Below, one piece after another: positions 57,033-62,724 of a stretch of DNA of 64,000 bases; within the stretch, counting starts at the first letter, position 1; the number at the start of each line of letters is the position of its first letter. The notes under the pieces are model-generated. The model saw only the letters and a program-made list of their open reading frames with translations. It was not told the DNA's origin and searched no databases. The position numbers and the translations under genes were made by a program. Origin of the DNA: Minisyncoccota bacterium (GTDB lineage: Bacteria; Patescibacteriota; Minisyncoccia; Phycocordibacterales; UBA9973); assembly GCA_041662525.1 (NCBI GenBank), contig JBAZSF010000002.1, positions 90,196-154,195 of the forward strand, in the 5' to 3' direction.

Positions 57033-57058
57033 CTAAACTTAATTTCTAAAGTTTATTG

Positions 57059-57100
57059 AAAACCCCGTCGCTCACGAGCGACGGGGTTTTGTTTTTGTGG
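57059..57100 (+). terminator. rho-independent terminator
   Basis: aaaaccccgtcgctc-acg-agcgacggggttttgttttt. Confidence 0.85.
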
Positions 57101-57112
57101 CTTTATTTTGAT

Positions 57113-57313
57113 ATGATATTAAATATGTTTGAACTTTTTTTTAAAATTTGGTGGATGATCGCAATCCTACCAGTTCTTATCTTTTTTGAAGCTACTAAAA
57201 AGTTTTCAGATTTCTTAAAGAAAAGAAACATCTATTCACACTGGGATTCCTGGCATTCTGGTGTCATTGTTCTAATCATTTTAATCATTATTCTCCTCCT
57301 AAACGGGTATTAA
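57113..57313 (+). CDS. small two-TM membrane protein
   Basis: Hydrophobic ORF. The ORF-track TTG start lies inside the terminator hairpin, so the internal ATG was chosen. Confidence 0.3.
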   Translation: MILNMFELFFKIWWMIAILPVLIFFEATKKFSDFLKKRNIYSHWDSWHSGVIVLIILIIILLLNGY

Positions 57314-57335
57314 TTAACATTTCCCCTAAGCTGTT

Positions 57336-57354
57336 TCGGACGTCCAACGTCCGA
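57336..57354 (+). repeat. REP hairpin copy 1
   Basis: tcggacgtccaacgtccga, preceded by tttcccctaagc. Confidence 0.8.
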
Positions 57355-57433
57355 ATAAGAATATCCACAGAAATGCGGGTATTCTTATTATTTTATGAGA
57401 TAATAGATAAATTATATTTATATTTTAAAACTT

Positions 57434-57452
57434 TCGGACGTCCAACGTCCGA
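57434..57452 (+). repeat. REP hairpin copy 2 (extended arms aaactttcggacgt / acgtccgaaa..gttt)
   Basis: Identical 19-mer, 21 bp upstream of the RAYT start codon. Confidence 0.8.
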
Positions 57453-57472
57453 AAAAAAGTTTATTATTTTGT

Positions 57473-58132
57473 ATGAGAAAAGATCCACTTATAACCAACC
57501 AATATTATCATATCTATAATAGGGGAGTTGATAAAAGAGATATTTTTATGAATGAAGCTGATCTTAATAGGTTTGTTTTAAGTGTTAAGAAATTCAATGA
57601 TATTGATCCTATAGGTAGTATAAAAGATTTAATGCTGAAAAAACCAGAGGATTCGGACGTTGGACGTCCGAATCCTCTGGTTTCGATAGTTTGTTATTGT
57701 TTTAATCCAAATCATTTTCATTTTATTATAAAACAGGAGGTGGACGGTGGTATTTCTGAATTTTTAAAGCGTTTGCTTGGTGGATATACAAAATATTTTA
57801 ATTTGACCCACAAAAGAAGTGGTGCATTGTTTCAAGGAAGGTTTAAATCAAACTTAATAGACGATAATGCATATTTTTTAAAAATTCGACCGTATGTTCA
57901 TTTAAATTATTTAGTGCACGATATTCCAAAGGAAAAAATGCACTTAGTTTTATCAAGTGAAAAAGAATACAATATGGGTGATTTCGTTATTGTTGAAGAA
58001 AAAGAGGCAAAAGAACTTTTAGATTTTTATAATGGTAACGAAAATTTTAAGAAAGAGTGTTTAGATGTAATTTCTTTTATTAAAGAAGAAAGAAAATTAA
58101 ATTTTTCTTTAGAAGAGGATCTATTTATATAA
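57473..58132 (+). CDS. REP-associated tyrosine transposase (RAYT; IS200/IS605 TnpA-like, HUH/Y1)
   Basis: YYHIYNRG N-terminal motif, HUH motif NHFHFII and GGYTKYFN...ALFQGRF (Y...Q.RF) C-terminal catalytic-Tyr motif. It is flanked by REPs. Confidence 0.7.
   Translation: MRKDPLITNQYYHIYNRGVDKRDIFMNEADLNRFVLSVKKFNDIDPIGSIKDLMLKKPEDSDVGRPNPLVSIVCYCFNPNHFHFIIKQEVDGGISEFLKRLLGGYTKYFNLTHKRSGALFQGRFKSNLIDDNAYFLKIRPYVHLNYLVHDIPKEKMHLVLSSEKEYNMGDFVIVEEKEAKELLDFYNGNENFKKECLDVISFIKEERKLNFSLEEDLFI
57647..57677 (+). repeat. REP copy 3: 31-bp perfect palindrome inside the RAYT ORF (in-frame)
   Basis: gaggattcggacgt-tgg-acgtccgaatcctc, encoding PEDSDVGRPNPLV. Confidence 0.8.
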
Positions 58133-58135
58133 AAT

Positions 58136-58154
58136 TCGGACGTCCAACGTCCGA
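58136..58154 (+). repeat. REP hairpin copy 4
   Basis: tcggacgtccaacgtccga, 4 bp after the RAYT stop. Confidence 0.8.
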
Positions 58155-58212
58155 AAGAAAAGTTTTCCACAATTTTTTTTGTAATTTATTTTATTTTTTA
58201 TATAATTTAAAA

Positions 58213-58882: not shown

Positions 58883-61800
58883 ATGAAAAATAGAATATGG
58901 TTTATTTTTGTTCTGGTTTTGTTCTTTTTATTTTGTTTTAAAGATGTTTCAGCGAGCGAACTATGTTCACCAAAAGGATATAGTATTTTTACTGTAAATG
59001 GAATATTGAATAGTGAAATTGATGCTATAAAAAATAAAGATAAATTAAAAAGTAAATTTCCGCCCACTTACAATAACGAACCTTTGATTATTGACTACCT
59101 CTACAACCCCACCCATCTTGCTGGAGCAGGGGATTTGATTGATGCAGTAAAACAAGGGCTTTTTGATCAAAAATCCGATTATGATTTAGTAGAAATGTTG
59201 AATGATGCAAGTCAAAAAGTTACCACTCAAAAAGTATTACTCGTTGCTCATTCGCAGGGTAATTTTTATGCAAACAATTTTTATGACAAAGTTGCCGACC
59301 AAGAAGGGGGAGTCCCTGGTCAGTCTATAGGTATATATGGCGTAGCAAGTCCCGCAAACCGTGTCGCTGGCGGAGGAAAATATTTAACTTCTAATACCGA
59401 TAATGTTATTGCTACTATGGTAGCACGTTATATTAAAATTTTATCACCCAATATTCACATATCACTTTCAAGTAATGATGATAGAAATGGTCATGATTTT
59501 TCTGGCGTGTATTTAAAATATCAAGGAGACAGAATCGTTTCTGATATTAAATCCTCACTTAATAAATTAAAAGATAATGATGAGCAAGATTCCAGAGAAC
59601 CTTGCATATCTCCGCCAGAACTTTCTACGCTTCACAAAGTGCAAGGTCTAGCTTTTGCTGTGGCTGATCCAACAGCCAATTTTACTAAAACAGTTGCTGT
59701 TAAAACTGCCCTTGGTTCATATAAAATTGCTTCAGCCATTGGAAATGGTGTGTTAGGAGGGGTGAATTTAGTTGCTAATTCTATTTCTTCATTTACCAAA
59801 AATACAAAAGGATTGGTACCTAACAACGACGCGGGAGTAGTTTTATCTAATGGCGAGACATCTTCAAATACTAATAGTGCAAATCCAACGAACAGTACCC
59901 CAAAAAGTTCTATTGTTTCACAGATTACAAATAAAATAAAAACATTAGCGATGGGGATAGTTGATCCAAATTCTGTATCAGCTGAGAATAACGAAGATTC
60001 TTCTTTGCCTGCGCCTGTATCTATTCCTGAGAATATTGATAGCATTGATTCTATAAGTAGTGAAAATAATACAAGCGGGAGTAATGGCGGTGGTAGTGGA
60101 GGGGAAGTTGTTTTACCTGTTGAGCCTACTTTAGACACTATTCCTCCCGTCGTAATTGAACCCGAGATTATTCCTCCAGTTGTAGAACCCACACTAGTTG
60201 TAGATATTATTTCACCCGTCATCACTATTCTCGGAAATAATCCCACAGAAATTATAAAAGATACTATTTACACTGATGCTGGAGCGACTGCGCTGGATGA
60301 TATTGATGGAGTACGAGATGTCGTTGCTACAGGATTTGTAGATGTTGCTGTTGTTGGCACTTATATTATAACTTACACCGCGACTGATTTGTCTCAAAAT
60401 ATTGCGACCGTGACACGAACTGTAAATGTTGTTGCCCTTCCAGTGGTTGAAGAAGAAATTATTCCAATTATTCCACCGGTTCCAGAGGAAGAAGTTTTGC
60501 CTCCGCTTCCACCAACTCCTCCTCCGCTCAATACTGTTACGATAAATGAAAACACTACATTAGCTCCAGGCGAATACAATTATGATAATTTAATTATCAC
60601 TAACAATGCAGTTTTAACCCTCGAAGGAGACCCAACTTCTTTAAACGATTTTAAAGGAGTAAAAATAAATGCTGTGAATATTACCATTGATGCTGGTTCA
60701 TTAATTTCTGCTGATGGAAAAGGATATGGTCCCAATCAGGGTCCGGGTGCCGGGGAAGATGTATCTGCTATTTCAAACCCTGGCGCAAGTTATGGAGGAG
60801 CTAGTTCTGGTAATTCTAATGAAACAATTTATGGTTCAGCCACTCATCCAATTGATTTAGGTAGTGGTGGAATTACATATGGTGGCGGAGCTATCCGTAT
60901 TATGGTCTCTGATACTTTTACAAATAATGGAATTGTTTCTGTTAATGGAAATACCTCAAGTAGTGGTGGCAGTATTTATGTGACAGCGAAAGACATAGGA
61001 GGTAGTGGAGTATTTCGATCTAATGGTGGAGGTCTTTATGCGGGGAATTATTGGAAAAGCCCGGGCGCAGGAGGACGAGTCGCTATTTATTATCAGACTT
61101 CATCTTTTGGTGGAACTGCCGAAGCAAAAGGAGGATGTGGTAGTTATGATGGATGGAGCATGTCTTGCTCGCAAAATGGCACTGTAGGTCTTTTTGATGA
61201 ATCGGCAAATAATCTTTATATTAATAATTATTGGAATTTCCAAAAAAATGATAGTCCATTTAATTTCAATAATATTATTTTAACAGGAGCGAAAGTAATA
61301 ATTGATGATGGTACAGAAATTAATGCGAGTGGTATTATTCTCGACAAAGCTTCAACATTTACTCTTTCTGGCGAAGAAATTATTAACGTAGGAACCCTTT
61401 CTCTTTTAGGAAATTCAGATATTACTATAATTCCTGAAAAGATACTTTCTTTGAAAGTTTCAAATCTTAATATTGAAAAAGGTTCGACAATCTTTGCTGA
61501 TGACAAAGGGTACGTTAATGGACCCGGAACTTCCGAAATATATGGTGAAGCTGGGGCGAGCTACGGAGGTAAAGGAGGTGGCGCAACAGCCAAACCAGCT
61601 TATGGTTCTGATGTAGCACCGGCAGACTTCGGTAGTGGGACGGAGGGTCGTCGTGGTGGCGGGGCTATTCGCTTAATAGTGGATAATAATTTTAAAAATG
61701 ATGGTATCGTTTCAGCTAGTGGAATTTCAGAGCGTGTTAGCGGAGGCAGTATTTATGTAACAGCAAATAATATAAGCGGTAACGGTGTTTTTAAAGCAAA

Positions 61801-62671
61801 TGGTGGAAGTAGTTCTTGGCCTTATGGACCTATCGGGGGTGGGGGTGGAAGAATAGCAATTCATTATAAAACTTCTGATTTTTCTGGAACGACAAATGTT
61901 TTGTCTGGTATTTATTGTTTTTATGGTTGTGCTCCAGCGGGAGAGGCAGGCACTGTTAAAATGATAGATGATTCAATTCCAATTCTACCTCCGCCGGCTT
62001 CTCCGATTCTTAGTTCTGCAAAAATTATCACAACATTTAATTTTTCAAACTTAACACTGAACGTTATTGGAGTTCTAGATGAAACTAATCACAATGTTTC
62101 TTTAACTGTTCCTTTTAGTACTGATGTAAAAACTCTTGTTCCTACTATTACAATTTCAGAAAAAGCTTCAATCAATCCAAACACAGAGGTAGCGCAAGAC
62201 TTTACTAGTCCAGTTACTTATACAGTTACTGCCGAAGATGGCTCTACACAGAATTATGTTGTGGCGGTTTTGATTACTCCTGCTCCTGAACCTGAGCCTG
62301 AACCAGAACCTACTCCAGACATCACTCCGCCTTCAATTACGAGTTATACGTTCAATGGCGTAGCGGGTAACATTACGACTGATCCGTTAACAAATCCTGT
62401 GTCTATTGTTTTAACTGCCAATGAAAAAGTAAATTGGACTTCTATAAAAATTGAAAATCAAGATAATCCAAGCATTCATAAATATTTTTATGACGGTGCA
62501 AATTGTGTTAACGGTACTGATACTTGTACTAAAATTTGGAACGGAGAAACTTTTGGCGGAACTTTGCAAAATGGCATATATAAAATTAAAATAAAAATGA
62601 AAGATTTAGCTGGCAATGATTTCAATGATTATCTTTTCCCTTATGTAATTACAATAAACACCCATATTTAG
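58883..62671 (+). CDS. giant secreted surface protein (N-terminal alpha/beta-hydrolase-like GxSxG module, duplicated Gly-rich beta-helix modules, PEPEPEPE linker, Cys-containing C-terminal domain)
   Basis: Signal peptide. LLVAHSQGNFY nucleophile-elbow motif. Two ~140-aa internal paralogous modules (…DGKGYGPNQGPGAGE…GGAIRIMVSD… and …DDKGYVNGPGTSE…GGAIRLIVDN…). The PEPEPEPEPTPD motif follows. Confidence 0.7.
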   Translation: MKNRIWFIFVLVLFFLFCFKDVSASELCSPKGYSIFTVNGILNSEIDAIKNKDKLKSKFPPTYNNEPLIIDYLYNPTHLAGAGDLIDAVKQGLFDQKSDYDLVEMLNDASQKVTTQKVLLVAHSQGNFYANNFYDKVADQEGGVPGQSIGIYGVASPANRVAGGGKYLTSNTDNVIATMVARYIKILSPNIHISLSSNDDRNGHDFSGVYLKYQGDRIVSDIKSSLNKLKDNDEQDSREPCISPPELSTLHKVQGLAFAVADPTANFTKTVAVKTALGSYKIASAIGNGVLGGVNLVANSISSFTKNTKGLVPNNDAGVVLSNGETSSNTNSANPTNSTPKSSIVSQITNKIKTLAMGIVDPNSVSAENNEDSSLPAPVSIPENIDSIDSISSENNTSGSNGGGSGGEVVLPVEPTLDTIPPVVIEPEIIPPVVEPTLVVDIISPVITILGNNPTEIIKDTIYTDAGATALDDIDGVRDVVATGFVDVAVVGTYIITYTATDLSQNIATVTRTVNVVALPVVEEEIIPIIPPVPEEEVLPPLPPTPPPLNTVTINENTTLAPGEYNYDNLIITNNAVLTLEGDPTSLNDFKGVKINAVNITIDAGSLISADGKGYGPNQGPGAGEDVSAISNPGASYGGASSGNSNETIYGSATHPIDLGSGGITYGGGAIRIMVSDTFTNNGIVSVNGNTSSSGGSIYVTAKDIGGSGVFRSNGGGLYAGNYWKSPGAGGRVAIYYQTSSFGGTAEAKGGCGSYDGWSMSCSQNGTVGLFDESANNLYINNYWNFQKNDSPFNFNNIILTGAKVIIDDGTEINASGIILDKASTFTLSGEEIINVGTLSLLGNSDITIIPEKILSLKVSNLNIEKGSTIFADDKGYVNGPGTSEIYGEAGASYGGKGGGATAKPAYGSDVAPADFGSGTEGRRGGGAIRLIVDNNFKNDGIVSASGISERVSGGSIYVTANNISGNGVFKANGGSSSWPYGPIGGGGGRIAIHYKTSDFSGTTNVLSGIYCFYGCAPAGEAGTVKMIDDSIPILPPPASPILSSAKIITTFNFSNLTLNVIGVLDETNHNVSLTVPFSTDVKTLVPTITISEKASINPNTEVAQDFTSPVTYTVTAEDGSTQNYVVAVLITPAPEPEPEPEPTPDITPPSITSYTFNGVAGNITTDPLTNPVSIVLTANEKVNWTSIKIENQDNPSIHKYFYDGANCVNGTDTCTKIWNGETFGGTLQNGIYKIKIKMKDLAGNDFNDYLFPYVITINTHI

Positions 62672-62699
62672 TTTCCCCTAAGCCGGGCTTAGGGGAAAC
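62671..62699 (+). terminator. hairpin gtttcccctaagc-cgg-gcttaggggaaac
   Basis: Perfect 13-bp stem. The same tttcccctaagc half-site precedes REP copy 1. Confidence 0.5.
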
Positions 62700-62724
62700 C
62701 TGTCGGGTGTTGGACACCCGACAG
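62700..62724 (+). repeat. REP-like variant hairpin (ctgTCGGGTGTtggACACCCGAcag) with compensatory substitutions
   Basis: Relative to the REP, a>g and c>t changes in one arm are matched by g>a and t>c changes in the other. Confidence 0.6.

Follow-up and report, generated by a model that had tools for sequence, protein, structure and literature searches.

In a 64,000-nt stretch of DNA from a Minisyncoccota bacterium (assembly GCA_041662525.1, contig JBAZSF010000002.1, positions 90,196 to 154,195), which is called the window throughout, we have identified a gene for a Y1-type transposase-like protein of 219 aa that is flanked, and also interrupted in frame, by copies of one short palindromic repeat. 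The locus is probably a module similar to the so-called REPtron (REP, repetitive extragenic palindrome): namely, a resident, single-copy, and vertically inherited gene for a Y1 enzyme with the HUH (histidine-hydrophobic residue-histidine) motif, of the REP-associated tyrosine transposase (RAYT) type, together with a short perfect-palindrome repeat that this enzyme recognizes. The gene and the four repeat copies, designated U (upstream), I (internal), and D (downstream), are as follows.

57335..57355, + strand: U1, upstream repeat copy, TTCGGACGT-cca-ACGTCCGAA; 9-bp perfect stem, DNA fold of -9.6 kcal/mol (z -5.2).
57432..57454, + strand: U2, upstream repeat copy, TTTCGGACGT-cca-ACGTCCGAAA; 10-bp stem, 3' end 18 nt before the ATG.
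57473..58132, + strand: gene of the 219-aa Y1 HUH (RAYT-like) protein; HUH residues H81/H83, presumed catalytic Y141, C-terminal helical extension.
57641..57683, + strand: I, internal repeat copy, a perfect 43-nt palindrome with arms of 20 bp and the loop TGG; core in the orientation opposite to that of U1, U2, and D.
58135..58155, + strand: D, downstream repeat copy, TTCGGACGT-cca-ACGTCCGAA; start 3 nt past the stop codon.

A 19-nt core, TCGGACGT-CCA-ACGTCCGA, is located at 57336-57354, 57434-57452, and 58136-58154, and its exact reverse complement, with the loop TGG, at 57653-57671 inside the open reading frame (ORF) 57473-58132; the expectation from 100 dinucleotide shuffles was 0 copies of this 19-nt hairpin. 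A preliminary description of this DNA had placed hairpins at 57336, 57434, and 58136, and all three were indeed found, identical and with the loop CCA. The internal copy, described there as identical to them, has the same core but in inverted orientation, and its palindrome, given as 31 bp at 57647-57677, actually extends over 43 nt with the arms at 57641-57660 and 57664-57683. The reported contrast of GC-rich hairpins with an AT-rich genome (~60% versus ~33%) was borne out by the measured G+C contents of 63% in the hairpin core and 35.5% in the window. As single-stranded DNA, the outer hairpins fold with -9.6 to -10.5 kcal/mol (z -4.5 to -5.7) and the internal hairpin with -24.3 kcal/mol (z -9.1). 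U1 begins 22 nt 3' of the stop codon of a small upstream ORF, and a 48-aa ORF in the window, 57373..57519 (KTFGRPTSEKK), is a mere translation of hairpin U2.

The 219-aa product contains the motifs YYHIYNRG (residues 11-18), HFHFI (81-85), and LFQGRF (119-124); the first two had been pointed out correctly, and the third, quoted as Y...QGRF, is present but is a motif of the protein core and not that of the catalytic tyrosine. The Pfam model Y1_Tnp (PF01797) matches with 26.4 bits against the gathering cutoff of 23, residues 70-143 being aligned, and all of 92 diverse family members match Y1_Tnp and no other domain. The AlphaFold model has a predicted local distance difference test score (pLDDT) of 85, and a fold search returned 4er8, 2vhg, and 2ec2, of which the closest is the REP-associated transposase of Escherichia coli (4ER8); the fold is nearer to that of TnpA_REP than to those of the IS608 or IS200 TnpA. 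In the alignment of the 92 sequences, H81, H83, and Y141 are invariant down to 36% identity, and so is a C-terminal S162/E165/Y166 motif. Y141 is presumed to be the catalytic tyrosine from its position in the model, on the helix 132-143 after the last core strand. The family is large: 3759 matches were obtained, mostly of exactly 219 aa and with 67-87% identity, from sources labeled Paceibacteria, Nomurabacteria, and Zambryskibacteria and named "transposase" or "RayT"; an exhaustive search with an E limit of 1e-3 returned 14,865 representative clusters, and at least 567 species genomes encode a relative. With the Y1_Tnp match, the fold of TnpA_REP, and the single-copy syntenic gene described below, the preliminary assignment as a REP-associated Y1 transposase with flanking hairpins stands.

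Copy I is in frame and codes for K57-V70 (KPEDSDVGRPNPLV). Covariation of the 20-bp stem of the window was evaluated in a codon-registered alignment of 10 close relatives, which was not fitted to the structure; 12 of the 20 pairs were found to be altered on both sides and none on one side alone. The compensation was all Watson-Crick, with no G-U among the cells of 20 pairs in 10 sequences, and the inner helix was 100% paired. The covariation score of 0.329 was reached by none of 500 shuffles (0.153 +/- 0.024), and slid controls gave 0.07-0.16. All of the 24 aligned close homologs have the internal segment, which might be taken to mean that SDVGRP and its flanks are selected as protein while the palindromy of the DNA is incidental. 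The segment nonetheless reads SDVGRP, SDVQRP, SGVGHP, or SGVQHP among the homologs, and these variants follow the DNA: the loop TGG or CCA gives G or Q in the peptide, and the stem TCGGACGT/ACGTCCGA or TCGGGTGT/ACACCCGA gives D..R or G..H. Furthermore, the same nucleotides occur again in the non-coding flanks, the 40 different stems of the family (see below) encode unrelated peptides, and within the model only the hairpin-encoded residues 57-65 form an internal stretch of pLDDT below 50. Selection for the peptide itself is thus barely credible, and the low pLDDT together with the variants following the DNA indicates that the peptide is dictated by the DNA. In the model, the hairpin-encoded peptide is predicted to lie in a surface loop that is disordered and precedes the HUH strand; a second internal site used in other branches corresponds to the loop after the Tyr helix (~residues 148-156). 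In one homolog (P0108), the segment SDVGHP is composed of a 5' arm of the CGGACGT type and a 3' arm of the CGGGTGT type and is apparently a mismatched intermediate or a recombinant between the two repeat types.

While the internal copy had been regarded as a REP domesticated in just this genome, it proved to be a feature found across the Candidate Phyla Radiation (CPR). We surveyed the hairpins in 80 loci fetched from Patescibacteria species genomes (81 loci in the counts of placement), the scan being for perfect stem-loops only. In 46 of the 80 loci (57%), a perfect stem of at least 7 bp was present in the 96 nt leading up to the HUH strand, compared with 8.9% of control windows in the same ORFs, and the stems in the control windows cluster at the second internal site (~nt 445). 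These 46 internal hairpins represent 40 distinct inner stems, and the same stem is found again within 300 nt outside the ORF for 32 of them; the stem sequence, therefore, varies between lineages, agrees within a locus, and covaries with the flanking copies. The placement is also regular: the gap between U and the ATG has a median of 19 nt (interquartile range 14-24; 42 of 81 loci), the start of D is at a median distance of 5 nt from the stop codon, and I is located inside the ORF at ~nt 175 or, in some branches, at ~nt 445, with both sites occupied in a few. All three of U, I, and D are perfect copies of one family in 23 loci.

These results bear on the possibility that this genome alone acquired the internal palindrome, through a recent and accidental REP insertion that happened to keep the frame. 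Accidents of this kind are evidently possible, as in-frame copies were seen in many unrelated genes (see below), and the extension of the stem to 20 bp is local to this lineage. A lineage's own repeat is, however, present at the same site in 46 of 80 loci, down to ~35% protein identity, all 24 of the aligned close homologs have the segment, and other branches have the second conserved internal site at ~nt 445; we hence consider such an accident very improbable and retain the repeat as a regular part of a REPtron-like module. Two further proposals on the geometry of the repeats were rejected. I is not consistently inverted with respect to U and D, as it would be in a REPIN (REP doublet forming hairpins), given that every combination of loop orientations was seen at U, I, and D. 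Nor are internal hairpins systematically longer than the flanking ones, with a median of 10 bp each (p = 0.4). The free orientation of the loop is in keeping with frequent inversion of the loop or frequent conversion among perfect palindromes, and it speaks against a geometry at the gene that is fixed like that of a REPIN. It was also observed that, in L190, L122 (P0052), and P0092, a shift of the stop codon lets the Y1 ORF continue through the downstream hairpin, by which the C-terminal sequence ...FGRPTSE or ...SDVGRPN is gained.

The locus could alternatively be an autonomous insertion sequence (IS) of the IS200 type, with U and D as its left and right ends and with ongoing transposition of the whole ~0.8-kb unit. 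The length from hairpin through ORF to hairpin, ~720-820 bp, is the size of IS200, the fold is that of a Y1 enzyme, and the hairpins tightly abut the ORF. The surroundings of the gene are nonetheless conserved: the 212-aa and 1262-aa genes downstream in the window are also 3' of the Y1 gene in L002, L003, L007, and L078, and in L001, L003, and L004 the Y1 gene is likewise preceded by the C-terminal part of the 661-aa protein encoded upstream in the window, so that the same neighbors recur in several genomes at 42-76% protein identity. This conserved synteny speaks for a resident gene and not for a hopping IS. Only a single Y1 gene is present in the window, the palindromes at its two ends are perfect and identical, their loops being free in orientation, unlike differentiated left and right ends, its fold is closer to TnpA_REP than to the IS608/IS200 TnpA, and copies of the repeat alone occur in other genes without the ORF. 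The chance that the locus is a mobile IS is accordingly slim, and a resident gene with its own repeat is preferred. An association with phages or viruses was rejected as well, with no Y1 gene found in the viral contigs of IMG/VR. Two paralogs of one genome carry differing repeats (L003 versus L065; L016 versus L027). Compared with the window, 65% identity was found in L078 (Yonathbacteria) for the neighboring 212-aa gene and only 42% for the Y1 gene, which is either evolving at a much higher rate than this neighbor or represented at the site by another paralog.

The hairpins might instead be elements acting at the level of RNA, as a terminator, a stabilizer of mRNA, or a brake on translation or through RNase III, and be unrelated to the DNA activity of the enzyme. 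Hairpins in the mRNA of IS200 limit its expression, and the 20-bp internal stem would form a very stable RNA helix. Copy D is, furthermore, at the 3' end of the ORF, as are many REPs (Di Nocera 2013, PMC3733652). The window does contain a classical intrinsic terminator at 57059-57090, a 14-bp G+C-rich stem with a T-tract, after the 661-aa gene; unlike this terminator, however, the repeat hairpins are followed by no T-tract on the + strand, by which their assignment as intrinsic terminators was rejected. Only the minus-strand reading of D is terminator-like, and no gene is there. The compensation in the stem is strictly Watson-Crick, with no G-U, copies are found in both orientations and in all six frames of unrelated genes, and an Rfam search gave sub-threshold noise only, with no family match. 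In many loci, moreover, U is upstream of the -10 element and is thus probably untranscribed. We accordingly give an RNA-level role as the whole explanation a small chance, although copy I may have an additional effect as RNA, and favor a repeat recognized as DNA by the enzyme. In the window, the -10-like element is as follows.

57462..57467, + strand: -10-like hexamer TATTAT, between U2 and the ATG, 5 nt before the ATG.

Likewise, in L001, L003-L006, L117, and L122, a -10-like or extended -10-like sequence (tgatataat, tataat, tacaat) directly follows the upstream hairpin, 6-8 nt before the ATG. The arrangement of these sequences suggests a leaderless promoter, the hairpin occupying the -35/spacer zone.

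Copies away from Y1 genes were found in relatives. In a scan of metagenomes for the stem with any loop, which returned at least 119 stretches, the loop was CCA or TGG in ~40 of the 119 listed (3% expected by chance). Among the matches listed, the loci with these loops are mostly of low G+C content, and in most of them a Y1 gene is absent from the stretch. The copies are singlets and inverted doublets 3-6 nt apart, many of them in frame inside genes, including those for GatB, PurH, AtpD, AtpG, GuaA, MurE, IscS, a TrxB-like protein, and a glycosyltransferase; the inserts are spanned by Pfam domains. The in-frame copies in housekeeping genes are from the metagenome contigs L094, L118, L149, L150, L156, L159, L160/L126, L165, L175, L176, L184, and L192; such copies in intact genes were thus seen in the contigs of relatives, and in the window only in the Y1 gene itself. 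The 21-nt unit is free of stop codons in all six frames, and all six translations occur in host ORFs. Two GatB orthologs differ by exactly 7 aa, or 21 nt, which is one unit, and PurH orthologs also differ in the presence or absence of a copy; at a second site in GatB, an intact copy in one ortholog is matched by decayed-looking sequence of the same length in others. The 307-kb contig Ga0172379_10000042 carries a Y1 gene surrounded by seven copies (L122) as well as a copy in PurH (L118). For other repeat types, 735 kb of sequence contained 23 copies that share a contig with the Y1 ORF but lie >300 nt away from it (0.031 per kb), 9 of them inside frames of at least 150 aa. In IscS (L126/L160), a hairpin of the CGGGTGT type adjoins one of the CGGACGT type; judged from these sequences, there are hints that new copies land beside old ones.

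In the window, one further feature is as follows.

62671..62724, + strand: two abutting perfect hairpins, just 3' of the stop codon of ORF 58883..62671.

The first hairpin, GTTTCCCCTAAGC-cgg-GCTTAGGGGAAAC at 62671-62699, is of a type (CCCCTAAGC-cgg-GCTTAGGGG) that was not found in any of the 199 fetched loci, and the second, CTGTCGGGTGT-tgg-ACACCCGACAG, is of the sister type CGGGTGT that flanks the Y1 genes of L001-L004. Both sit between the stop codon of the 1262-aa ORF and the promoter of the next gene. They are probable dispersed copies of related repeat families, which suggests that more repeat families, and perhaps more Y1 paralogs, are present in this genome.

Based on these observations, a mechanism can be proposed. 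The enzyme would bind the repeat extruded as a hairpin in single-stranded DNA, as the fold and the covariation suggest, and Y141 and a metal ion bound to the HUH motif would nick and rejoin the DNA by analogy with the E. coli TnpA_REP and the IS608 TnpA. In this way, units of 21 nt and their doublets could be copied or moved. In the gene-dense CPR genomes, copies landing in protein loops could survive, presumably because the unit is a multiple of three and is stop-free in six frames. Copies near the gene would stay matched to the specificity of the enzyme, either through selection as cis-acting sites or through homogenization driven by the enzyme. Finally, with U abutting the -10 element of the probably leaderless promoter, the enzyme bound there would repress its own gene. 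Autoregulation through U is the least certain of these steps and is proposed tentatively, its chances being less than even; possibly, I would contribute to it as well. The still broader view, in which the intragenic and promoter-abutting copies are functional self-targets, the enzyme sensing and controlling its own gene through the binding or nicking of hairpins extruded there, and in which it actively writes stop-free 21-nt units into the surface loops of essential proteins across Patescibacteria, we consider rather unlikely; if true, however, the system would be a transposase-linked and still-active counterpart of the Rickettsia palindromic elements (RPEs) and a minimal, tractable REPIN-RAYT system.

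Several points weigh against the assignment as a REPtron-like module. The NCBIfam equivalog REP_Tyr_transpos (NF047646) gave 24.9 bits and did not reach its cutoff of 80, and the identity to 4ER8 is just 13-15%; in a search of the Protein Data Bank sequences with the family profile, furthermore, no match was obtained at E up to 1. A search with profile models had been suggested at the outset, and its outcome is hence divided, PF01797 passing and the RAYT equivalog falling far under its cutoff. In classical REPs, cleavage is guided by a GT[AG]G foot, which is missing in the window, the foot of the repeat being TCGG. In the scan for perfect hairpins, no repeated one was found in 23 of the 81 loci. 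Neither the search for the 19-nt core with up to 2 mismatches nor that for half-sites found further copies in the 64-kb window; with no same-type copies in its other 63 kb, dispersal in this genome is unproven, although zero copies in 63 kb are unsurprising at the 0.031 per kb of the relatives. The copy number in relatives is, by extrapolation, in the tens and not the hundreds per genome. Also, binding, cleavage, mobilization, and autoregulation by the family members are activities that we infer. The architecture is therefore not the canonical one of REP and RAYT, as had been claimed, considering the low equivalog score, the missing GT[AG]G foot, and the short, low-copy, perfect palindromes.

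Other elements beside the gene deserve mention, two of which contain sequences similar to a DnaA box.

57354..57389, + strand: imperfect inverted repeat AATAAGAATATCCACA/TGCGGGTATTCTTATT, holding the DnaA-box-like 9-mer ATATCCACA (57361-57369).
58163..58171, + strand: DnaA-box-like 9-mer TTTTCCACA, 8 nt 3' of copy D; the same arrangement in L003, L122, and L190.

The segment 57354-57389 is kept in L190 (TTATCCACAGAAATGTGGGTA) and is followed by a conserved -10-like tttatgagataata. DnaA-box-like sequences, TT[ATG]TCCACA, are found 6-10 nt 3' of the hairpins flanking Y1 genes, with a perfect TTATCCACA in L190; the motif is also present in L198 and L144 and at about -52 and +35..+48 in other loci. 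The 8-mer T[ATG]TCCACA occurs 22 times in 32 kb beside Y1 genes (0.68 per kb), compared with 0.16 per kb elsewhere in the loci, and is thus enriched ~4-fold near Y1 genes, mostly on the strand of the gene. No DnaA-type domain was detectable in the Y1 protein by domain and fold searches. Upstream of U1, a small hydrophobic ORF at 57127-57313 (MFELFFKIWWMIAILPVLIFFE...) lies in the listed ORF 57056..57313 and is conserved in L003 (68% over 47 aa); one is discernible by eye also upstream in L004. It is probably a real gene for a small membrane protein, and the listed TTG start at 57056 is probably wrong because it overlaps the terminator hairpin.

The locus touches on issues that are still open, namely the function of RAYTs, the way in which REPs and REPINs are copied, and the reason for the persistence of the pair. 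The CPR family is a very small system, with an enzyme of 219 aa, a perfect hairpin of 19-21 nt, and a few tens of copies per genome as extrapolated from relatives. The stem variants, 40 or more in number and each agreeing among the three or four sites of its locus, are natural covariation data that could help to decipher the recognition code and to plan binding and cleavage assays. Hairpin-encoded peptides in core CPR proteins (AtpD, GatB, and PurH) have a bearing on annotation, on alignment-based CPR phylogenies, and on the question of how repeats survive where intergenic space is almost absent.

Among known systems, TnpA of the peel-and-paste transposons of the IS200/IS605 family (IS608, ISDra2) is similar in the catalytic fold, in the recognition of a hairpin in single-stranded DNA, as we infer for the CPR enzyme, and in the size of the element; in contrast, the CPR gene is not multi-copy, has undifferentiated ends and no TnpB, and occupies a syntenic place. 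RPEs were reportedly described by Ogata in 2000. Like the CPR repeats, RPEs and intragenic REPs are small palindromes, occur as singlets and dimers in frame in functional housekeeping genes, and add short peptides; the CPR units are, however, far shorter (21 nt) and are linked to a cognate Y1 gene, whereas no transposase is known for RPEs. Intragenic REPs have been listed before, and RPEs are the classic example of insertion in frame (Di Nocera et al. 2013, PMC3733652).

Flanking cognate repeats and a similar fold are found in the REPtron with E. coli TnpA_REP (4ER8; Nunvar 2010; Bertels & Rainey 2011; Ton-Hoang/Messing 2012). REPs and REPINs are extragenic by definition, and RAYTs are single-copy, with paralogs having their own repeats (Bertels & Rainey 2011, PMC3116915); the CPR repeats are instead short perfect palindromes of low copy number, many of them intragenic, and the CPR gene has one or two copies inside itself and a C-terminal helical extension. 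GTAG is present at the equivalent position of the stem in some lineages only (L006, L013, and L014, with GTAG...CTAC).

REPs within tnpA_REP itself, with the frame kept and in a peripheral region of the protein, are known from subclass 2.4 in Cyanobacteria and Bacteroidetes (Quentin et al. 2018, PMC6006769), and the "double-foot" REPs of this subclass (GT[AG]G...C[TC]AC) have the same form as the repeats of L006, L013, and L014. Judged by its description only, subclass 2.4 differs from the CPR family, in which the sites are fixed family-wide (one preceding the HUH strand, the other following the Tyr helix) and a C-terminal extension with the invariant S162 is present, while subclass 2.4 lacks the core extension; the phyla are also different, and the CPR repeats are short perfect palindromes. 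By that description, the gene of the window falls outside subclass 2.4, its insertion being in frame but at residues 57-70 and its extension being present. To call the locus "unusual", as the preliminary description did, was hence an overstatement, with thousands of family members labeled RayT and in-gene REPs known from subclass 2.4. A description of this family in CPR was not found in the searchable literature. Nonetheless, in-gene REPs, in RAYT and in other genes, are already published, and the CPR locus is thus considered to be a variant of known systems but not a new kind.

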